DNA of 64,000 nucleotides. It comes from Verrucomicrobiota bacterium. Lineage in GTDB: Bacteria > Verrucomicrobiota > Verrucomicrobiia > Limisphaerales > AAA164-E04. This document shows, in pieces, positions 53,158 through 62,946 of the stretch (its first letter is position 1; each line of letters opens with the position of its first letter). The stretch is taken from contig CP170459.1 in assembly GCA_047947115.1 (NCBI GenBank), positions 576,001-640,000 of the forward strand. The letters run 5' to 3'. Under the pieces are notes generated by a model that worked only from the letters and a program-made list of their open reading frames with translations, was not told the origin of the DNA and searched no databases. A program made the translations under genes and the position numbers.

Positions 53158-53339
53158 ATTAAGCCTGTTTATTTGTTGAACCGCACCACCGCAGTGGCGG
53201 GATCTTCGAGATGGCGCAGATTGACGCAAATGATGAGTTTCATCTTTTGTATTCACCCATGCAAAATGAATCGCCGCGCATGTGCGATGGATATTGCGGT
53301 TGACTGGACTTGAAAGCGGAAAAGGAAGGCGAACAACTC

Positions 53340-54200
53340 ATGGCATCACAACCAACACACTCCAAGCCTCTCGAGTCCGCCGCCCTGCCTCCGGCGAATC
53401 TGGTTCCGGAATCCCTTGGCTTTGTTCATCTAGGTCGCCGGATCATTCGATCACTGGAAACACTGCACGAATTGATCGCCTTCACCTTGATCACTCTCAG
53501 TGTCACGGTCTTCAAAATTGGCAGATCCCGGTCGGTGGTGCACCCACTGATCCGACGACAGATATTTCAGGCAGGCATCCGATTGCTCCCCTTGGTAAGC
53601 CTGGTTGCCTTGATCACCGGATTCATTGTCGTCGGCCAGATGATTTCCCTGTTCAGCATGGTCGGTGCTGGACGCTACACCGGACTGGTAATGGTCATCG
53701 CGGTGTTCCGAGAACTCGGCCCACTGATGACCGCCATGATGGTACTGGCGCGTGTCGGCACTTCAACGGTAATTGATCTGGGCACCAAGCGCGCTTTGGG
53801 CGAGGTGGAAGCCATGGAAGCCCTAGGCATTGATTCGATCCACTACCTGGTGGTTCCACGCGTGCTCGGTCTGGCCTTGTCGATTGTTTCACTCACCATT
53901 TATTTCATCCTCATCTCAATGGTCAGCGCGTATTTCTTTGTATTCCTCCAGGACATTCCGATGAAACCACTGGCATTCGTCAACCAAATCACAGAAGCGC
54001 TCCACATTTCCGATTTTCTGGTATTGATTCTGAAATCCTGTTTCTTCGGAGGTGTCATCGCAGTAGTGACCTGTTACGAAGGATTGGCACGTCCGATTCG
54101 ACTGGAACAAATCTCGGTAGCAGCCACCCGGGCGGTGATGAAAGCCATCATCTTGTGCGGTTTGTTGGATGCGGTGTTTCTTCTCTATTGGATGATATGA
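53340..54200 (+). CDS. MlaE-family ABC transporter permease
   Basis: RELGPLMTA..V.ARVG, EVEAMEALGI...LVVPR, ATRAV. Confidence 0.88.
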   Translation: MASQPTHSKPLESAALPPANLVPESLGFVHLGRRIIRSLETLHELIAFTLITLSVTVFKIGRSRSVVHPLIRRQIFQAGIRLLPLVSLVALITGFIVVGQMISLFSMVGAGRYTGLVMVIAVFRELGPLMTAMMVLARVGTSTVIDLGTKRALGEVEAMEALGIDSIHYLVVPRVLGLALSIVSLTIYFILISMVSAYFFVFLQDIPMKPLAFVNQITEALHISDFLVLILKSCFFGGVIAVVTCYEGLARPIRLEQISVAATRAVMKAIILCGLLDAVFLLYWMI

Positions 54201-54985
54201 CGGTATCCGATCCATCAATCGACGAAAAGGACATCCTCATTGAACTGAGAGACGTCACCGTTCGTTCCGTCACCCAGCCGCATTTGGATTGGATCCGCAA
54301 CTGGGACTGGACCATTAAAAGTGGAGAGCGCTGGCTGGTGGGAGCCAAACCGGATTCCGGCAAAACATCACTTTTGTCTGTAGCTGCAGGACTCGTGCAT
54401 GCCCACCGGGGAACCGTTCGCATCTTCGATCGCGAAGTCCAAGATCTGGAACCGGAATCATGGCTGGACGAAAAACTGCGCATGGGGATGGTCTTTGAAG
54501 ACGGAGGCAAGGTGTTTCAGGAACTGACTGTCTTTGAAAATCTCATGTTGCCTCTCAATTACCACGAACGATTGACGCCTGATGAAAGAAGGGCCCATGT
54601 CCAATCCATCCTGGAAAGCACAGAGATGGATCATATCGCAGGGCGATCAGCGGCTGGCTTGAGCCGAAATTGGAAACAACGACTGGGACTGGCACGTGCG
54701 CTGGTGTTGCAGCCGGAAGTCCTCTTTCTTGACAATCCTCTGGGAGCAGTGGACGCCCATCATGGCCTGTGGTGGTTGAAATTTCTGGATCGTCTTATGA
54801 CCGGGCGGTGGGAGTGGCAACCCAAGGCGCTGGTGGTCTCGGCGAATGATCTGACACCCTGGATGTCACGCATCAATCGCCTGGCCTTGATAAATGACAA
54901 AAATTGGGTAGAGATAGATCCGGGCGACCGAAACACTCTCGAAAGCGATCCATTGATCCAGTCGCTCATGACAGCAAAAATATAG
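54197..54985 (+). CDS. MlaF-like ABC ATP-binding protein with degenerate motifs
   Basis: ABC fold (SGKT, LTVFEN, ARALVLQPEVLFLD), located between mlaE-like and mlaD-like genes. Confidence 0.8.
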   Translation: MTVSDPSIDEKDILIELRDVTVRSVTQPHLDWIRNWDWTIKSGERWLVGAKPDSGKTSLLSVAAGLVHAHRGTVRIFDREVQDLEPESWLDEKLRMGMVFEDGGKVFQELTVFENLMLPLNYHERLTPDERRAHVQSILESTEMDHIAGRSAAGLSRNWKQRLGLARALVLQPEVLFLDNPLGAVDAHHGLWWLKFLDRLMTGRWEWQPKALVVSANDLTPWMSRINRLALINDKNWVEIDPGDRNTLESDPLIQSLMTAKI

Positions 54986-55001
54986 AAACCAAGAAAGCAT
55001 C

Positions 55002-56030
55002 ATGCCACTACAAGACCTGACACCCCAGATTCGCACTCGGCTCAACCGGGCCGAACGATTCGTCGGACTTTTTGTCGGGCTTGCGCTAATGGGATTGATT
55101 GGCGCATTTGGATATTTCATTTTTCATACAGCCAAACAAAAAGGGTGGTTTCTGACACAGGCGCGTTATTTTACCTATCTTCAAAGCGCTAATGGTATTT
55201 CCTTGGGAGACAAGGTCAAACTTATGGGTTTTGAAGTAGGGGAGATCACATCGATCGAAGCCATGCCGGCAAGTGATTGGCTTTATAACGTTTATGTGGA
55301 ATTCGTGGTGCGCAGTCCCTACCACGGTTATCTTTGGAAGGATTCCACCGTTAAGTTTGTGTCAGGAGATTTTCTAGGTAACCGCTATTTGGAGGTCACC
55401 AAGGGCTATGACGGAGAAGTTCTCTATAAGGAAGAAAACGGCAAAATTGTAGAATGGTGGGACGGAACAGAATACCTTCCATTCGAAAAGACCACTAAAC
55501 CGGTCTGGATCCGAGCTATCGAATCCAATGGGCTGAACAATCAGATCGAAGACATCCTGAAAGTGGTTCAGGAACAGCTTCCTAACGTTTTTGCGCTCAC
55601 AAACCAGCTGTCCATGACGCTCGACCACGCGAATCAGATGAGCACCAACGTCAACAACCTGCTCATCGAAACTCAGGCGGCCTCAAAGAACCTCGTAACC
55701 ATCACTGAAAACCTGAAGGATCCGAATGGTTCATTGGGACGCTGGTTGTTACCCGAGGATTTGAATCAGGACATTCATCACACCCTGCTTTCCGTGACAA
55801 ACACCCTCAGTTCAGCCGATACGAATATGACTCTTGCGGTGTCCAGCCTGAATATCAGCCTGAACCAACTCGCCACTCTCACCAGCAACTTCAACGCTCA
55901 GGTCCAGGCAAACACCAATATCCTTGGTGAAATATCTTCTCTAGTGGTCACCGCCAACGATTTCATGGAAAGCCTGCGTGATCACTGGCTTCTTCGATCT
56001 GCCTTCAAAGAAGACAAAAAGAAAAAGTAG
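55002..56030 (+). CDS. MlaD/MCE-domain protein
   Basis: TM, ANGISLGDKVKLMGFEVGEI, FLGNRYLEV, long helical tail, GSLG motif. Confidence 0.88.
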   Translation: MPLQDLTPQIRTRLNRAERFVGLFVGLALMGLIGAFGYFIFHTAKQKGWFLTQARYFTYLQSANGISLGDKVKLMGFEVGEITSIEAMPASDWLYNVYVEFVVRSPYHGYLWKDSTVKFVSGDFLGNRYLEVTKGYDGEVLYKEENGKIVEWWDGTEYLPFEKTTKPVWIRAIESNGLNNQIEDILKVVQEQLPNVFALTNQLSMTLDHANQMSTNVNNLLIETQAASKNLVTITENLKDPNGSLGRWLLPEDLNQDIHHTLLSVTNTLSSADTNMTLAVSSLNISLNQLATLTSNFNAQVQANTNILGEISSLVVTANDFMESLRDHWLLRSAFKEDKKKK

Positions 56031-56294: not shown

Positions 56295-59200
56295 TCATCG
56301 GGCGATGATCAGGCGGTTGTCCAGGGTCCATACATATATACGACTGGTCAGCGTTGGACTGACATTTGCCGAGTCCTGCATGACGATCCACCCCCGGATG
56401 TTTTCAGACTCCATACTCTCGAGCAACGCCGGATCTATTCCTGGTTCCAGACCAGGATCCAGGACCAGGATTTCAATGAAGTTGTGATGCCCCGGATAGT
56501 AAGTTTGCGAAAAGGTCGAACTCAGGGAAAATTCACCGTAACCTGCAAAATCCAACAGAATATCCTCCCACTCCTGCAACACGGGTGTTTTGAGAATCCA
56601 AGGAGTCTCACCTCGAATTTTGTACGAGCCAATGTAAAAATCACTAGTTACAGACAACCCACTTGATTTCGAATTGACGTTGCGCTTCCACGAAAAGTTT
56701 GGGAATCCACCGCCCAAGTTGACTGGATCTATGTCAGCCAAAGTGACCGAATCCTCGTGTGTGGTCCCGAAGTTTTCTCTGAACAAATCTATTTTCGGTT
56801 GAGCCGTGGCGTAACGGGCCGTCAACTCAATCTCGGCATCTCCAAGATTGAGGAACGGCGTGGTGCGTCGGCGAAGGTCGTAGAGAAAATTGAAGTGTAA
56901 CTGGTAGTCCACTCGCAAAGCATCTTCGCCCCAATACCAATCCACTTTCAAATCACGGCCGGACATGGTCACCTCAGCACCCGGAAGGTCGCTCATCAAT
57001 CCGTCATAATGAACGATCTTCCGGTTATGAACAAATTCCAGATCCACGTTCAAAAGGCCCGCAGGGTCATCCGGCAATTCATCCCCCACCAGCCCCCAAC
57101 TATGAAACTTCCACACCGACTTCAGGCGGTGACGCGCCATCATGTCACCGAACTCACCCTGCACCACCTCAAACGCATCCACATCGCTGAATGCAATGGG
57201 CAATGCCACCCCATCTAATGGTGAGACGGGAATCGCGCGAATCTGTTTCAACACGATGTTTCCGGGAGCCATTTTTTTGTATTCGAAATCCAGCAGCACT
57301 TCGGTTTTTGATTCAAAGTGATCCAGGTAAGCCCCGGACGCCTGAAGCATGAGTTCCGTGAGCAAACGGTAATCATCATGCCATTCCATAACCGTCGCCC
57401 CCAACTGCACCAAAGCGCTCCCCTGCACCAGTTCAAACTCCATTTCAACGGCGTTTGAAATTCCCACTCGCACGATCTCGGGCAGAGCAGAACGATCCGG
57501 ATTAGCCACGGAGACGGCCTCTTTTTGAGTGACGAGACTCCCTTCGACCAATACCGGCACACCATTCTCCCCGCGAGACACGCGCAAGGTAGCAACACCG
57601 TTCGCCCATTCGCCTTCATCTGGAAAACTGTGGTGAGCCAGGACAGCCATTCCGACCTCGCTCTCCTCCACGCCACGTCTCAGACGTTCAATGAAGGCGT
57701 TCTCATTGTAGAAACTCGCATACACTTTTTGGATGGCACGAAACACGCCTCGTTCCTTGTCCTTCGTTGGATCACAGTTACTGGGCCCCTCAGTATCCTC
57801 GTCCAAATCATCCGCCACGCAGCCACTGAAACTGTCATATAATCCCGCGCCGACAAATTGCTCACTGTCCTCCACATTGGTGGAACTGCGAAAACGGATT
57901 TTTTGATCACTGCTCATCGTTGACAGAGCATTCAGAATGGCTGTTTGCTGATCGGCACTGAATCGGGCTTTCTTTTCGATCAAATCACGTATCTCTCCCA
58001 AAGCAACCGCCAGCTCTCCCGGATTCTGAAGCGGAAATCGGAAACCCATTAATTTGGCATCAATGGTTGCCTTCAGGGATTCACCGCTTGCGAGGAGTTG
58101 CGACATGAAATCGTTCCACAGATCAAAAGTAAACGCAACCGCTTCTCCCGGGGAATGATCCGGTATGGATCTGAGCAAAAGACCAAGATTCGCCGCCTTG
58201 CCCCCGACTTTCCCGATGTCCCCGGGACTTAACTCGGAAACGGGCAAAGCTATTTCGCCTGCCAATTGAACCGGATTGTAGGCAAGAGGAGGCAACCGTT
58301 TCAAATCAAGTAATTGTGTCTTCTGATCCTCGCTCAATTGATTCCCAACTTTAAGTATTCGCACGTTCACACTCTTTTCATTCCGGCCGGCGATCAACAA
58401 GACATCCTCACCGACCCATTGCCTGATCTGAACCTGACGCGCGGTGTCAGCCAGGTATGCAAACGGCACACCAAATGATTGAGCCAAGATGGCGACATGC
58501 GAATTGGAGGTTGCCGGAGAAAGGGACAGGATGCCGGACACAGGTGGCACCTCTGCCGGAACATCATCGAGCACCAAAATGTCCGACGTTTTCAAATCAC
58601 CGTTGGCAAAAGCCTCCTCAAGATCTCCGGATGCCAGATATACCAATCTTCCCAAGGCCCAACCTTCGGCATAAAGCCCGTCCTGCGTCACCCAACGGGC
58701 CGGCGAGTCGACGACAACGCCGTTTGATACAAAAAGATCTGCAGCCGCACGAGTGGCTGCTGCCTGCTCGAAGGTCGGCATGTAAATCAAGCGAACACCT
58801 TCACCCAGTCGCACACGCATGGCCACCAGGTCCAGCCATTCAAGGACGGACTCCACAGGAAACGCTTCCCGACCGACAAACTGCACACCGACTTCCCGAA
58901 TGGATGGATCATCCGGAAACAACAAGCCCCCCAGCAACAACTCCTGAGTATCGGGCATCAAAGTCACCCGCTCAAACTCACCGGGTTCCATTTCGGCATA
59001 GGATGGCAGATGGGCTTTTGCAAAATCATAGTGAAAGGGAAATGTCCGGCTGTCCTGAAAATAAATGTGCCCGCCCCGATCCAATGCCATCGCAAATTTC
59101 ACCCACCCCAAATCACCGGCATGACGCGGCAAAGCCAGGAAAGGGGAGACATCCGGCCCCAATTGATTGGTCCAGTCAGAAGCCCGATCATCGGATGTTA

Positions 59201-59483
59201 AGCGAAAGAACCGTTGTTTCTGATTCCTTGCCTGAAGATCGGTATACGTATCGAAAGCTCCCCATGACCTGGCCCAATCCTGCCAACTTTGCAGATCAAC
59301 GGAGGATTCAAGCAGATAGTTTTTAACGTCGCCTCCTTCCTGATGAATGGTAATGGAGGCGTCATCAGGGCCAGGGTGAATGCGGAGCAATGGGGCTTTT
59401 TGAGCGAACAGAGCGGGCAAACAGACCAACCAAAGGTATCCAAAAATTCCAACGTGATGATGAAGTAAAAAATAACGATTCAT
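56295..59483 (-). CDS. putative exported PEP-synthase/water-dikinase-like protein (phospho-His domain plus PPDK_N ATP-grasp domain)
   Basis: Signal-like N-terminus (…LWLVCLPALFA|Q), SNSHVAILAQSFGVP, VGGKAANLG, RFRSSTNVED..FVGAGLYDS, VYASFYN, GMAVL, DFEY, KQIR. Confidence 0.8.
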   Translation of the reverse strand: MNRYFLLHHHVGIFGYLWLVCLPALFAQKAPLLRIHPGPDDASITIHQEGGDVKNYLLESSVDLQSWQDWARSWGAFDTYTDLQARNQKQRFFRLTSDDRASDWTNQLGPDVSPFLALPRHAGDLGWVKFAMALDRGGHIYFQDSRTFPFHYDFAKAHLPSYAEMEPGEFERVTLMPDTQELLLGGLLFPDDPSIREVGVQFVGREAFPVESVLEWLDLVAMRVRLGEGVRLIYMPTFEQAAATRAAADLFVSNGVVVDSPARWVTQDGLYAEGWALGRLVYLASGDLEEAFANGDLKTSDILVLDDVPAEVPPVSGILSLSPATSNSHVAILAQSFGVPFAYLADTARQVQIRQWVGEDVLLIAGRNEKSVNVRILKVGNQLSEDQKTQLLDLKRLPPLAYNPVQLAGEIALPVSELSPGDIGKVGGKAANLGLLLRSIPDHSPGEAVAFTFDLWNDFMSQLLASGESLKATIDAKLMGFRFPLQNPGELAVALGEIRDLIEKKARFSADQQTAILNALSTMSSDQKIRFRSSTNVEDSEQFVGAGLYDSFSGCVADDLDEDTEGPSNCDPTKDKERGVFRAIQKVYASFYNENAFIERLRRGVEESEVGMAVLAHHSFPDEGEWANGVATLRVSRGENGVPVLVEGSLVTQKEAVSVANPDRSALPEIVRVGISNAVEMEFELVQGSALVQLGATVMEWHDDYRLLTELMLQASGAYLDHFESKTEVLLDFEYKKMAPGNIVLKQIRAIPVSPLDGVALPIAFSDVDAFEVVQGEFGDMMARHRLKSVWKFHSWGLVGDELPDDPAGLLNVDLEFVHNRKIVHYDGLMSDLPGAEVTMSGRDLKVDWYWGEDALRVDYQLHFNFLYDLRRRTTPFLNLGDAEIELTARYATAQPKIDLFRENFGTTHEDSVTLADIDPVNLGGGFPNFSWKRNVNSKSSGLSVTSDFYIGSYKIRGETPWILKTPVLQEWEDILLDFAGYGEFSLSSTFSQTYYPGHHNFIEILVLDPGLEPGIDPALLESMESENIRGWIVMQDSANVSPTLTSRIYVWTLDNRLIIAR

Positions 59484-59525
59484 TTAACTGTATTAGCAAA
59501 CCAATACAGCCAACAACATCGATTG

Positions 59526-60764
59526 TCAAGCGGCGGAACTTAATGCATCGGTGGGTGGTTGGGATGAGTTGTCTTTGGCAGCCGAAGATTTGAGTGTGAA
59601 GAAGAAGGTGGATCCTTTTCCCAACTCGCTTTCAACCCATACACGCCCTCCCAGAGTTTGGGCAATGTGCTTGACGATGGACAATCCGAGCCCGGTGCCT
59701 CCCTGTGATCGCGAACGCGCTTTGTCGACTCTGAAGAACCGTTCAAAAATGCGGTCCGTTGCTTCTGAAGGAATACCCGGACCGTCATCTGAAATACTGA
59801 CACAGACCTGATCGTTACCGTTGCGCATCGCCCGAACCTCCACCTTGCCACCTGACTTTCCATACTTCACTGCATTGTCGATGAGGTTCAGCAGAATTTG
59901 CTCCAGGAGGTCGGCATCGGCTTTGACGAACATGTCCTTGGGCACGGAATAACTGACTTCGATATTTCTTTTCTCCGCGCTGCGTTGGAGATCCCCCACC
60001 ACACGGGAAATTTCAAGACACAGTCGCAGTTCCCGAAGATTGACGGTTGCCTGTCCGGATTCCAACTTTGAAATGGTCAAGAGGTCTTCGATCAGAAGAG
60101 CCAGTCGATCGGAATGCTTCTGCACTTTGCCAAGAAAACTGGTCAATGTTTCTTGATCCATGGAGGGATGGTCAATCACTGTTTCGACAAAGCCTTTGAT
60201 CATGGAAAGCGGTGTTCTCAACTCATGACTTACGTTGGCCACGAAATCTCGCCGGGCGCTTTCCAGTTCTTTCAGGCGGGTAAAATCATGGAATATCAAG
60301 AGGACGCCTTCCGGTTTGCCGGATGCATCGTGCACGACCACGGCATTGAGCATGAGGTGTTTGGATTCCAGTGCAGATGGATTCAATTCCACTCCCATGG
60401 TGCGGCCATTTTTGACGGTTCGCTCAAACACTTCATGCACCTCATGCAGACGAAGGGCTTCCAGTAATGTGATCCCATCAGGCACATTCTCCGGAATACG
60501 AAACAATTGCCGGATGGCCCGATTCATAAACACCACCTTTCCTGATAACTCGCAAAGCATGACCCCTTCTGCCATGGCGTCGAACACGGCATCGCGATGA
60601 TGCTCCATGTCGGCCCGGGTGGATACCAACTGTTCCCGGAGCATGGCCGCTTTTTCCTGGAAGGATTTTCCTTCCCTGCGAATGCGCACAATCAAAGCAC
60701 CCCACAATCCGGAAACAACCAACGCCGTCAGGGCCGCTACTGCAAATATCTGAAAACCACTCAC
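59526..60764 (-). CDS. phoR: PAS-domain sensor histidine kinase, PhoR-like
   Basis: TM, PAS, RRDFVANVSHELRTP, NAVKY, ERFFRVDKARSR..GGTGLGLSIVKH. Confidence 0.8.
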   Translation of the reverse strand: MSGFQIFAVAALTALVVSGLWGALIVRIRREGKSFQEKAAMLREQLVSTRADMEHHRDAVFDAMAEGVMLCELSGKVVFMNRAIRQLFRIPENVPDGITLLEALRLHEVHEVFERTVKNGRTMGVELNPSALESKHLMLNAVVVHDASGKPEGVLLIFHDFTRLKELESARRDFVANVSHELRTPLSMIKGFVETVIDHPSMDQETLTSFLGKVQKHSDRLALLIEDLLTISKLESGQATVNLRELRLCLEISRVVGDLQRSAEKRNIEVSYSVPKDMFVKADADLLEQILLNLIDNAVKYGKSGGKVEVRAMRNGNDQVCVSISDDGPGIPSEATDRIFERFFRVDKARSRSQGGTGLGLSIVKHIAQTLGGRVWVESELGKGSTFFFTLKSSAAKDNSSQPPTDALSSAA

Positions 60765-60797
60765 TCCTGTTATTCGTCTGGATTGAACGTACCTGTT

Positions 60798-61487
60798 TCA
60801 ATCGGTCGGTTCGACAAGTCGATATCCCACGCCTCTGACCGTTCCGATGTGGTTGGAAGCTTTTCCCAGTTTTTCACGCAGCCGTCGAACGTGGGTATCA
60901 ACAGTACGTGTATCAATCAATTGATCGTATCCCCACACGTCCTGCAACAACTGGTCTCTGGACTGAACACGGCCTTTACGTTCCATCAGAATCTGAAGGA
61001 GCCGAAACTCTGTGGGTGTCAGATCGACCACCTTACCCTCGACTCTGGCTTCGTGGCAGGGGATATTGATTTCCAAATCCCGCACCTGCAATCGCTCCAC
61101 CTCGCCTTCTGGTTCATCCTGGCGTTTGAGCAGATTTCGTATGCGCAGGATGAGCTCACGCGGACTGAATGGCTTGGTCACATAATCGTCCGCGCCAAAT
61201 TCAAGCCCCAATACCCTGTCAATTTCCGAAGCTTTGGCGGTTAACATCACCACCGGCAGTTTCGCGGTGGCAGGATCACGGCGTAAGATCTTGCAAACTT
61301 CCAGGCCGTCAATCTCTGGTAACATCACGTCCAGCAGAATCAAATCCGGCGAAAATTTACGCGCTTTTAACAAAGCCTCCTCACCATCTTCGGCCGTAAT
61401 CACATCGTAACCTGACGCCTTCAAATTGAAACGAATCAACTCAATGGAATCGGGCTCATCGTCCACAACTAGTATTCTTGCACTCAC
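60798..61487 (-). CDS. phoB: OmpR-family response regulator, PhoB/PhoP-like
   Basis: VVDDE, LDVMLP, MLTAK, GADDYVTKPFSPREL, RTVDTHVRRLR, TVRGVGY. Confidence 0.8.
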   Translation of the reverse strand: MSARILVVDDEPDSIELIRFNLKASGYDVITAEDGEEALLKARKFSPDLILLDVMLPEIDGLEVCKILRRDPATAKLPVVMLTAKASEIDRVLGLEFGADDYVTKPFSPRELILRIRNLLKRQDEPEGEVERLQVRDLEINIPCHEARVEGKVVDLTPTEFRLLQILMERKGRVQSRDQLLQDVWGYDQLIDTRTVDTHVRRLREKLGKASNHIGTVRGVGYRLVEPTD

Positions 61488-61522
61488 CGACTGTAAACTG
61501 CCACCGACGCGGTGGCCCTAAG

Positions 61523-61551
61523 GTGACGGAATTGTAACAAATGCGAAACAT
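61523..61551 (-). promoter_or_regulatory. Pho-box-like direct repeats
   Basis: Minus strand ATGTTTC-GCAT-TTGTTAC-AATT-CCGTCAC: 7-bp units at an 11-bp period resembling CTGTCAT, 35 bp upstream of the regulator start. Confidence 0.6.
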
Positions 61552-61605
61552 TAAATCCATTCAAGAAATCTGGACGAATGATGCAGTCCAGCTATAATCC
61601 TCTCC

Positions 61606-62946
61606 ATGAATCCCCGTCCCAACATGAATCGTCGCCGTTTTCTGGCATCGAGTGCACTGGCCGGAACCACTCTGGCCTTTCCGTGGATCTCCGTTCGCAA
61701 TGTTTTAGGCGCCAACAACAGGCTCAACATCGCGGCCATCGGAGCCGGAGGCAAAGGGGGTGTGGATATTGGTTATTGTGCGGGCGAAAACGTGGTGGCG
61801 TTGTGCGACGTGGACACCAACAAGGCGGCGGGAAGCATCAAAAAGTTCTCCAAAGCCAAGGTTTATCAGGATTTTCGGAACATGCTGGAGAAGGAGGAGA
61901 AGCACATCGATGCCGTCACCATTTCGACTCCGGACCACACCCATGCCCACCCCGCCATCCTGGCCATGAAAGCCGGCAAGCACGTATATTGCCAGAAACC
62001 ACTTACACATACGGTCGAGGAAGCGCGCATTCTGACACGCATCGCAAAGGAAACCGGCGTGGTCACCCAAATGGGAAATCAGGGACATTGTCATTCCGAC
62101 AGCCGACGGTTGGTTGAATTGATCCGGGCCGGTGTGATAGGAGAGGTCAAAGAAGCTCATATCTGGACCGATCGCCCCATCTGGCCACAAGGACTGACAC
62201 GCCCCGTGGAAGTTCAGACACCACCCGACACAATCGATTGGGATCTGTGGCTCGGACCGGCACCGGAACGTCCTTACCATGCTTCCTATGCTCCTTTCAA
62301 CTGGCGTGGTTGGTGGGATTTTGGCACCGGAGCGCTCGGAGACATGGGATGCCATAACATGGACGTGGCCTTTTTCGCTCTGGATCTGAAAAACCCGACC
62401 GAAATTTCAGGCGAGGGCGAGGGCATGACAGAGGAATCTCCCCCCAAATCCGCGACGGTTCACTGGAAATTCCCGGCCAACAAAGACCGGGGGCCAGTCG
62501 CATTAACCTGGTATGACGGCGGTCGCAAACCGGATCCATCACTGGTTTCATTGAAGGAACTCCCGGGCAACGGGTGCATTTTGATGGGCACCAAGGACAC
62601 CATGTATGTCCCAAGCTACTGGGGTGATGCCAACTTTTTATCCGGCGCCAAGACGAGTGATTTTGATCAAATCGACACCACATTGCCCCGATGGCCGGGT
62701 GGCGCTCAGGACAACGACAAAGCCCATCATCACGAATGGATAGCAGCATGCAAAGGGGAAGCCAGAGCTCTTTCGCACTTCGATTATGCAGGTCCCATGA
62801 CCGAAGCCGTACTGCTGGGGAATGTGGCGTTGAGAGCCGGCAAAAAAGTGGAATGGGATGCACACCGAATGAAGATCACCAACGATCCCCACTCAAACCA
62901 ATACATTTACAAAGCTTATCGCAAAGGATGGGAATTACCGTTGTAA
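61606..62946 (+). CDS. Tat-exported Gfo/Idh/MocA oxidoreductase
   Basis: NRRRFL, IGAGGKG, STPDHTH, YCQKPL, WDLWLGPAP, GDMGCH. Confidence 0.93.
   Translation: MNPRPNMNRRRFLASSALAGTTLAFPWISVRNVLGANNRLNIAAIGAGGKGGVDIGYCAGENVVALCDVDTNKAAGSIKKFSKAKVYQDFRNMLEKEEKHIDAVTISTPDHTHAHPAILAMKAGKHVYCQKPLTHTVEEARILTRIAKETGVVTQMGNQGHCHSDSRRLVELIRAGVIGEVKEAHIWTDRPIWPQGLTRPVEVQTPPDTIDWDLWLGPAPERPYHASYAPFNWRGWWDFGTGALGDMGCHNMDVAFFALDLKNPTEISGEGEGMTEESPPKSATVHWKFPANKDRGPVALTWYDGGRKPDPSLVSLKELPGNGCILMGTKDTMYVPSYWGDANFLSGAKTSDFDQIDTTLPRWPGGAQDNDKAHHHEWIAACKGEARALSHFDYAGPMTEAVLLGNVALRAGKKVEWDAHRMKITNDPHSNQYIYKAYRKGWELPL

Follow-up and report, generated by a model that had tools for sequence, protein, structure and literature searches.

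Organization of the phoB-phoR locus and its predicted dikinase gene

The window analyzed here, the whole stretch of 64,000 nucleotides, carries on its minus strand a Pho box, a phoB-like gene, a phoR-like gene and a gene for a predicted exported dikinase of the swivel-histidine type, hereafter P0001 (Table 1). ORF calls reproduced the 1062-aa ORF that the initial annotation had placed after the two regulatory genes, together with the 42-bp spacing on the same strand (59484-59525), and a terminator scan of this spacer was empty. The phoB-like protein gave its top NCBIfam score with PhoB (TIGR02154; 265.9 bits, below the cut-off of 296.2), and the phoR-like protein scored highest with PnpS and PhoR (360.4 and 292 bits, both below their cut-offs of 400 and 334.2). 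A canonical PPDK is encoded separately in the same genome.

Table 1. Features of the locus, with positions in the window
Feature	Position	Strand	Basis
phoB upstream Pho box, a pair of heptamer repeats with 11-bp spacing	61523..61539	minus	near-identical 17-mer before pstS
phoB-like response regulator, 229 aa	60798..61487	minus	Response_reg + Trans_reg_C; PhoB top NCBIfam match
phoR-like sensor kinase, 412 aa (PAS, HisKA, HATPase_c)	59526..60764	minus	Pfam, NCBIfam
Spacer element, TTGACA + palindrome	59488..59529	minus	own locus and, by match, 4/5 orthologous genomes
Swivel-His dikinase gene P0001, predicted exported, 1062 aa	56295..59483	minus	ATG start, ORF call
N-terminus resembling a signal peptide (residues 1-27; cleavage predicted after A27)	59403..59483	minus	strict heuristic passed
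Accessory module, small and beta-rich, with LESS.DL..W motif, residues ~28-98	59190..59402	minus	DSSP of model
Universal N-domain, residues 98-270, predicted acceptor-binding	58674..59192	minus	pLDDT 93; K129, H151, G185, P236
Swivel phospho-His domain, residues 267-387	58323..58685	minus	Z 8-10 to EI/PPDK carrier domains
H329 codon	58497-58499	minus	H in 350/351 aligned rows
ATP-grasp domain, PEP-synthase/RPH type, residues 408-755	57219..58262	minus	PPDK_N; fold match to RPH
Optional beta-rich C-terminal domain, residues 758-1060, HRLK + HHNF motifs	56304..57212	minus	DSSP; split forms

The Pho-box-like repeats noted earlier before phoB are real, the 17-mer being common to the phoB and pstS upstream regions. 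These two regions hold the sole exact sites genome-wide for the pattern TGT(A/T)ACAATTCCGTCAC, four sites being found at two mismatches, and a matching tandem lies upstream of phoB in all five orthologous loci. RNA contigs, which carry no strand and of which one does not equal a single transcript, joined phoR and the dikinase gene in two of six runs (X2, 57544-61416; X5, 59069-60916); those of X1, X3 and X4 ended at or near the phoR spacer, and X7 was fragmentary. Positions 61513-61619 were uncovered by the listed contigs of X2-X5, and contigs of X1, X4 and X5 ended at 61508-61512, weakly hinting at genuine RNA and at a phoB start at this point. In this genus, the dikinase gene is likely cotranscribed with phoBR from the Pho-box promoter.

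The spacer between phoR and the dikinase gene holds an element that had been overlooked, in which TTGACA overlaps the phoR stop codon and is followed by a 22-nt palindrome (59488-59509) ending 4 nt before the dikinase ATG. It is recognizable by eye in the fifth orthologous genome, whereas none of the remaining loci among L001-L110 gave a match. The element is possibly an internal promoter or an operator or hairpin, and the dikinase gene may have a promoter of its own inside the spacer. A role of the palindrome as the operator of a regulon was rejected, only seven sites being present genome-wide at one mismatch, two of them intergenic.

Association with phoBR was seen in one genus only

The initial annotation had linked the dikinase to phosphate starvation and proposed a survey of homolog neighborhoods for phoBR and pst. 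Within the genus, phoBR adjoined the dikinase gene in five of seven genomes. Outside these genus-level orthologs, the adjacency was found at none of 77 other GTDB loci (60 with at least 2.5 kb upstream), and no Pho-box-like tandem preceded any of 74 dikinase gene starts. PstS, PstC, PhoU and VTC had no matches in 122 loci. As a general property, the linkage is unsupported, and the predicted phosphate control of the dikinase gene, as judged from these loci, is a local arrangement and no family trait. In the same genome, simpler exported phosphoesterase-type genes (metallophosphoesterase and EEP) carry Pho-box-like sites.

Domain architecture and conserved residues of P0001

The sequence motifs reported for P0001, namely SNSHVAILAQSFGVP (H329), GGKAANLG (K429), RSSTNVED, AGLYDS and QIR, were all recovered. 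Pfam placed PPDK_N at residues 425-751 (E 2.6e-15, over the cut-off), and the predicted model of the ATP-grasp domain aligned with RPH 5hv1 (Z 27.9, rmsd 2.6, 289 aligned) and HpeI (Z 21.8). For the His region, the Pfam PEP-utilizers match (residues 324-350, E 0.03) was under the cut-off; the predicted fold nevertheless aligned with PEP-utilizer mobile domains, as had been supposed, including EI-Ntr 5t12 (Z 10.2, rmsd 3.9, 101 aligned) and the PPDK carrier domain 2fm4 (Z 8.2, rmsd 3.5, 104 aligned). The H329 domain precedes the ATP domain, the order known from GWD, and throughout the family the His motif came before the RSS motif in 374/374 proteins having both. No pyruvate-binding barrel was matched by Pfam, the C-terminal domain consisting mostly of strands. 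A viral fold search returned ATP-grasp matches only, and a plasmid search found no match to P0001.

Key residues of the ATP-grasp domain are K429, R532, S551, E734, Q747 and R749, together with a conserved cysteine pair. Across 362 sequences, conservation was near complete for H329 (350/351), K429 (354/354), R532 (356/360), E734 (354/354) and R749 (354/359), as well as for C555 (354/355) and C570 (349/354), the only cysteines of the mature chain. RPH Lys22 and Arg117 position ATP and are required for resistance, according to PMC4844700; the equivalents of RPH Lys22, Arg117 and Glu297, matched by motif and not by superposition, are K429, R532 and E734.

A conserved domain of ~170 aa at residues ~98-270 was absent from the initial annotation. 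Its K129, H151, G185 and P236 were invariant in 11/11 rows covering the long, short and Streptomyces clades. Foldseek returned nothing for this N-domain at E up to 0.001, and its top fold match was XisH (Z 5.6). Although PD-(D/E)XK nuclease-like folds dominate the VIA list, their Z of 3-5.6 is within background and gives no ground for a nuclease assignment. Since there is no clear fold match, the predicted role in acceptor binding derives from position. The N-domain lies ahead of the His domain, the place taken in GWD by the central domain on the acceptor side (PMC13553574). Comparison of N-termini indicated that Verrucomicrobiota members have the accessory module at residues ~28-98, which is substituted in Myxococcota and Planctomycetota members.

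The C-terminal ~300 aa had been singled out as the unrecognized part of the protein. P0001 had no Pfam match there, no Pfam family was common to two of 87 members, a profile of the domain had no match in the PDB, and a search with it gave eight shorter matches, mostly fragments. The domain is, however, optional: it is missing or encoded separately in many homologs, including five genomes in which it forms a separate signal-peptide gene, and the universally conserved part without a clear fold match is the N-domain.

Predicted export of the dikinase family

Signal peptides were called with our own loose and strict heuristics. The strict heuristic was positive for 139/243 long and 96/118 short homologs, compared with 6/3719 internal windows, and missed 104 of the 243 long homologs. 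The loose heuristic was positive for 0/26 canonical PPS/PPDK, although it is unspecific, calling 100/243 and 117/243 internal windows and 1946/4429 genome ORFs. By these heuristics, Sec or lipoprotein signals occur among homologs of three phyla, with a lipoprotein-type Cys in Sorangium/Polyangium homologs. LamG, beta-helix, LTD, BACON, Kazal, RTX, Fn3 or dockerin domains were found in 13 of 22 long homologs picked for extra length, and four of the five separate C-domain genes passed the strict heuristic. The conservation of C555 and C570, with no other Cys in the mature chain, was counted in favor of export as well. Taken together, the signals in three phyla, the extracellular-type fusions and the signal-bearing split genes agree with the export originally claimed, and make secretion of P0001 via Sec a well-supported prediction.

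Family distribution and gene neighborhoods

P0001 is, by sequence, a member of a large family of over a thousand sequences, whose hosts include Verrucomicrobiota, Planctomycetota, Myxococcota and, among genera, Sorangium. Clustering of 867 neighborhood ORFs revealed no conserved neighbor of the dikinase gene, Pfam searches of 95/111 flanking ORFs and one other (17 probable non-genes excluded) identified no conserved partner, and across loci no conserved neighbor naming a substrate was found. A Streptomyces clade has the same three domains in 668-670 aa without a signal peptide, sharing 24% identity with the exported forms over the His/ATP part, and its genes lie in operons that also encode an ATP-grasp ligase and an MFS protein. 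In a quick tree of 29 rows, the exported forms made up their own branch (SH-aLRT 96), and monophyly of the Streptomyces clade with them was not rejected (p-AU 0.83). The ligase/exporter operons of this cytoplasmic clade hint at a peptide-like acceptor.

A proposed extracytoplasmic phosphoryl transfer

Our preferred reading, to which we assign a probability of about 0.5, is that P0001 is an exported ATP:acceptor dikinase acting outside the cytoplasm on an organic acceptor bound by the N-domain. The beta-phosphate of ATP would be transferred to His329 with release of AMP and Pi, and phospho-His329 would then swing to the acceptor on the N-domain, which would provide a second active site with K129/H151. 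The acceptor may be a peptide or an envelope protein or polymer, a guess drawn from the cytoplasmic clade, in which the same three domains sit in amino-acid-ligase and exporter operons. Extracellular ATP is reported as nanomolar, under the Km of Lig E, in bioRxiv 10.64898/2026.03.22.713542, which counts against an exported ATP-using dikinase.

Several other functions were considered. The ATP stripping for phosphate suggested in the initial annotation is possible but less likely: as a PhoB-controlled ATP diphosphatase, the enzyme would pass its phospho-His to water and scavenge two phosphates per ATP, in line with the position of the gene behind Pho-box-controlled phoBR in its own genome and its same-genus relatives, and with RPH variants that keep the first half-reaction when no acceptor is present (PMC4844700). 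The lack of phoBR at the 77 other loci and of Pho-box-like tandems at the 74 starts argues against it, the genome already has the simpler exported metallophosphoesterase and EEP genes with Pho-box-like sites, and hydrolysis needs no conserved extra domain with invariant Lys/His; we consider this function unlikely. Distinctly unlikely, too, is a bacterial glucan or polysaccharide water dikinase that loosens insoluble polysaccharide as GWD does on starch. The invariable His-before-ATP order, as described for GWD, fusions to LamG, beta-helix and dockerin in some members, and hosts such as Verrucomicrobiota, Planctomycetota and Sorangium would fit such a role; P0001 has, however, no carbohydrate-binding Pfam family, no GWD was among its fold matches, its neighbors are not consistently glycan genes, and the cytoplasmic clade adjoins peptide ligases.

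The enzyme could also run in reverse: with a high-energy phosphoryl donor bound to the N-domain, it would convert AMP and Pi to extracytoplasmic ATP and so feed other exported kinases. CotH is an atypical kinase, with 30 matches in this genome, and CotH genes flank a dikinase homolog in L021, L094 and L096. However, no phosphoryl donor was found, VTC had no match in 122 loci, and water dikinases that phosphorylate ordinary hydroxyl acceptors in practice work in one direction. Swivel dikinases such as PPDK do run in the ATP-forming direction; even so, we regard reverse use as very unlikely. Least probable, by a small chance, is that P0001 is no active exported enzyme at all, being instead either a kinase that stays in the cytoplasm despite its N-terminus or a surface protein that binds nucleotides. 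The low ATP supply outside the cell would suit this, as would the PEP synthase equivalog scores of 35.8 and 35.1 bits, far below the cut-offs of 598 and 739.75, but the His and ATP-site residues are almost wholly conserved, and several independent export signal types occur alongside extracellular fusions.

Beyond the preferred dikinase reading lies a broader and doubtful one, in which P0001 would be the long form of a widespread, so far undescribed class of extracytoplasmic phospho-His dikinases with a new acceptor fold. These would mark envelope peptides or proteins with high-energy phosphate or, in reverse, make periplasmic ATP for the many exported CotH kinases, and the class would be PhoB-controlled in this genus. 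The combination of export signals and an intact set of catalytic residues in one family implies that Verrucomicrobiota, Planctomycetota and Myxococcota use ATP to drive phosphoryl transfer beyond the cytoplasm. Through this family, the use of ATP in the periplasm becomes open to direct testing, and a domain of ~170 aa, conserved but without a clear fold match, comes into view. For the chemistry itself, easy entry is given by the Streptomyces clade, which is cytoplasmic and whose neighboring ligase suggests a candidate substrate.

Comparison with known systems

In the literature searched, with thin coverage of subscription journals, an exported dikinase with the His domain before the ATP domain was nowhere described; what came closest was a brief remark on giant proteins carrying PPDK_N domains. 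The characterized swivel-His dikinases reviewed (PEP synthase, PPDK, RPH, HpeHI, GWD and TalE) are found inside cells or plastids. PEP synthase and PPDK share PPDK_N, swivel His domains and the GGK and RSS motifs with P0001, but their order is ATP domain, His domain and pyruvate barrel, whereas P0001 has the reverse order and no barrel. RPH and HpeHI/PpsAB/CreHI, likewise with a swivel His domain and no barrel, have the closest ATP-grasp fold, and their ATP to AMP + Pi chemistry is probable for P0001. In RPH, the His domain is C-terminal (PMC4844700), in contrast to its position ahead of the ATP domain in P0001, which also differs from RPH-type enzymes by its signal peptide and its small alpha/beta presumed acceptor domain without a clear match. 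The RIF/phenol-binding domain was not among the N-domain fold matches, the Atlas lead Rph_4th standing at only 0.88.

Like P0001, GWD1/PWD (EC 2.7.9.4/5) have an acceptor-side domain, a His domain and then the ATP domain, according to PMC13553574; P0001 differs in being bacterial, predicted exported and equipped with an optional C-domain after the ATP domain. No carbohydrate-binding module was detected in P0001 by Pfam at E up to 0.1, no sequence or fold match to GWD was found, and GWD was not listed among the N-domain fold matches from a library that may not contain it. Lig E is a precedent for an ATP-dependent enzyme with a signal peptide, and CotH, abundant in this genome, is listed as an exported ATP user; the ligase chemistry of the former and the chemistry of the latter are unrelated to P0001.

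TalE (GenBank MK644118) of the phosphoramidon cluster is a PEP-synthase-like phosphoramidate kinase of 79 kDa that acts on a dipeptide (PMC6482885). P0001 differs from it by its signal peptide and the lack of a ligase neighbor, and the Streptomyces operons L163 and L164 are, unlike the TalE cluster, without an annotated glycosyltransferase. Compared by description and size only, the primers having given uninformative gene ends, TalE has genes for an ATP-grasp ligase and an MFS protein as neighbors, and so does the similarly sized dikinase of the Streptomyces clade.

The predicted dikinase locus and its Pho link

The initial annotation described three minus-strand ORFs, a phoB/phoR-like pair followed by a gene for a dikinase-like enzyme; these were recovered at the same coordinates, all motifs quoted for the 1062-aa protein (P0001) were found in its translation, and a scan listed no terminator-like site within the 42-bp phoR-dikinase spacer, as had been stated. 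The dikinase gene is single-copy in its own genome (6.08 Mb, one contig), where a canonical PPDK is encoded separately. The Pho box proposed before phoB was borne out as a 17-mer located 52 bp upstream of this gene. A one-base variant of it lies 71 bp ahead of the pstS start as called, and the genome has no further exact site. Of 130 sites matching a looser pattern, 39 lay outside ORFs (non-ORF DNA being 9% of the genome), and the looser sites included positions before a metallophosphoesterase gene and an EEP-family gene. Given the 17-mer common to phoB and pstS and the looser sites before phosphoesterase-type genes, the two-component pair is very likely PhoBR, though it scores below NCBIfam cut-offs.

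Contigs from RNA libraries, which carry no strand information and do not equal single transcripts, spanned the phoR-dikinase junction in X2 and X5. In X1, X3, and X4 they broke off at the spacer or close to it, and in X7 they were fragmentary. Orthologues conserve both the spacer palindrome and a TTGACA that overlaps the stop codon of phoR, so an internal promoter is possible; the palindrome is a candidate operator or translational hairpin.

The proposed Pho operon shrank to a genus-level arrangement. Adjacency of phoBR and the dikinase gene was found in 5 of 7 same-genus genomes only, with PhoB/PhoR at at least 35% identity in 0/77 other loci (60 with at least 2.5 kb upstream), PstS, PstC, PhoU, or VTC in 0/122 loci, and a Pho-box-like tandem at 0/74 gene starts. 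A second dikinase copy in a related genome (G001, locus L005) lies away from phoBR. No neighbor was conserved across the whole family in a flanking-gene survey of homologue loci; minor recurrent neighbors were an EEP-family gene and, in L046, L062, and L077, a CN-hydrolase gene. In another relative (G005, L085/L162), phoR and the dikinase gene start both seem frameshifted, through assembly error or decay.

Features of the dikinase locus, its genome, and homologue loci (window positions unless a contig, C1 of the source genome G000, or a homologue locus, L, is named)
Feature	Position	Strand	Remark
phoB-like	60798-61487	-	ORF
phoR-like	59526-60764	-	ORF
Dikinase gene, 1062 aa	56295-59483	-	ORF
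Palindrome	59488-59509		In spacer; ends 4 nt before dikinase start codon, at RBS position
X2 RNA contig	57544-61416		Spans junction
X5 RNA contig	59069-60916		Spans junction
mlaE/mlaF/mlaD-type ABC operon	53310-56030		Converges on dikinase gene; otherwise present only at closest orthologue
pstSCAB-phoU operon	G000:C1:5337082-5346602 (L178)		Preceded by PHO4/PiT-family transporter and TonB-dependent receptor gene
VTC-domain genes	C1:4095200-4096776, 5927473-5928889		Each beside small membrane-protein gene; neither near dikinase
Weak Pho-box-like site	C1:4410737		Upstream of one of the CotH matches
EEP-family gene	L005:11138-12040, L159:9197-10066		Flanks homologue in two genomes
Streptomyces cluster	L163:4157-8837, L164:4070-8897, L165-L171		Conserved; divergent PAS regulator, BacD-like ATP-grasp ligase, His-before-ATP dikinase, MFS

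Domain Architecture and Predicted Export

Pfam matched PPDK_N at residues 425-751 of P0001 (E 2.6e-15) and PEP-utilizers, sub-threshold, at 324-350. PEP synthase/PPDK identity was rejected, as P0001 scored 26-36 bits against PEP synthase and RPH (rifampin phosphotransferase) models with cut-offs of 598-999 and carries its His before the RSS motif. [quoted passage not shown] The His region (267-387) is predicted to fold like a PEP-utilizer mobile domain, as anticipated (EI-Ntr, Z 10.2; PPDK, Z 8.2). The N-domain (98-270), modeled in isolation at pLDDT 93, gave no clear fold match (top XisH, Z 5.6; none by Foldseek at E up to 0.001). The C-domain (758-1060), chiefly strands in the prediction, had no Pfam match in P0001 and no PDB match with a profile.

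Signal peptides were judged by two custom heuristics, with 22 of 265 long forms dropped as partial or non-Met starts. The loose heuristic passed 200/243 long forms, 114/118 short forms, and 0/26 canonical PEP synthases/PPDKs; it is weak because it also fires on many internal windows (100/243 and 117/243 at two of the four positions, 2/243 and 7/243 at the remaining two). The strict heuristic passed P0001, 139/243 long forms, and 96/118 short forms, against 6/3719 internal windows and 1090/4429 genome ORFs. Sorangium and Polyangium homologues have N-termini with a lipoprotein-type Cys, extracellular modules (LamG, beta-helix, LTD, BACON, Kazal, RTX, Fn3, dockerin) occur in 13/22 longer homologues scanned, 4/5 split C-domain genes carry strict-heuristic signal peptides, and the mature chain's sole Cys residues form one conserved pair. 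Together these support the earlier claim of an apparently exported enzyme, and export of the dikinase is predicted with high probability.

Family Distribution and a Cytoplasmic Streptomyces Clade

A His/ATP core search retained 1474 proteins of 7993 scored candidates, a further one matched 506 clusters at 50% identity with E up to 1e-30, and the best 80 GTDB loci were labeled mostly Verrucomicrobiota, Planctomycetota, and Myxococcota. Of 41 related genomes, 26 gave matches; 17 of these encode the long form, whereas the other 9 encode only the 650-750-aa short form, which lacks the C-domain. The N-domain profile matched 4/201 genomes evenly sampled across the phylum, own genome counted; the family is therefore patchy. 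The His motif was N-terminal to RSS in 374/374 proteins with both detected. The C-domain is optional, 33/265 proteins stopping at most 30 residues past QxR, and is encoded as the following gene in 5 genomes. P0165, P0175, P0238, and P0252 carry a lamin-tail domain between the His and ATP-grasp domains, extending their spacing from ~200 to ~360 residues where measured. L175 and L176 (Polyangium, Sorangium) each hold a second, short-form lipoprotein paralogue directly after the same lipoprotein gene.

The short-form search also recovered three Streptomyces plasmid proteins matching over the His/ATP part; six metagenome loci hold further relatives. The clade retains the N-domain (K129, H151, G185, and P236 invariant in 11/11 aligned rows spanning long, short, and Streptomyces forms), and a heuristic scan found no signal peptide on its proteins. 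A quick tree built from 29 ATP-grasp domains placed all 18 exported rows on one side (SH-aLRT 96); a grouping of these with the Streptomyces rows was compatible with the data (p-AU 0.83) rather than demonstrated. Two annotated Streptomyces records place a BacD-like ATP-grasp ligase, the dikinase, and an MFS exporter in one operon, and the cluster is a candidate for making a phosphorylated small peptide. As a lead, the operon resembles the tal cluster, in which PEP-synthase-like TalE (79 kDa), compared here by description rather than sequence, N-phosphorylates a dipeptide from TalD (PMC6482885).

Proposed Mechanism and Comparison with Known Systems

If the enzyme follows the RPH mechanism (PMC4844700), H329 would first receive a pyrophosphoryl group from ATP; loss of the gamma-phosphate as Pi would follow, after which the His domain would swing to a second site. 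The domain ahead of the His domain in GWD (glucan water dikinase; PMC13553574) suggests the N-domain as the natural second site, a role that its invariant Lys and His would fit. Across 362 long-form sequences, with aligned rows as denominators, conservation was 340/341 for K129 and 343/343 for H151 in the N-domain, 350/351 for H329, and 354/354 (K429), 356/360 (R532), 354/354 (E734), and 354/359 (R749) for ATP-grasp residues.

We favor an organic acceptor, at a probability of roughly one half, our best guess being a peptide or an envelope protein or polymer. Pure ATP hydrolysis is unlikely, a glucan substrate marginally more so, operation in reverse as an ATP synthesis reaction improbable, and an inactive or cytoplasmic protein very improbable. 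ATP supply is the weak spot of the exported-dikinase reading: extracellular ATP is reported to be nanomolar. The same paper provides Lig E as a precedent for an exported ATP-using enzyme (bioRxiv 10.64898/2026.03.22.713542). The 30 CotH kinase domain (PF08757) matches in the genome, a large expansion with many in 900-2900-aa open frames, suggest a large set of exported kinase-like proteins in this bacterium.

In the literature searched, we found no description of an exported His-before-ATP dikinase, and the family, with an N-domain lacking a clear fold match, is both surprising and testable. P0001 likely works like RPH, the aromatic dikinase HpeHI, and GWD, but differs from them in domain order or CBMs.
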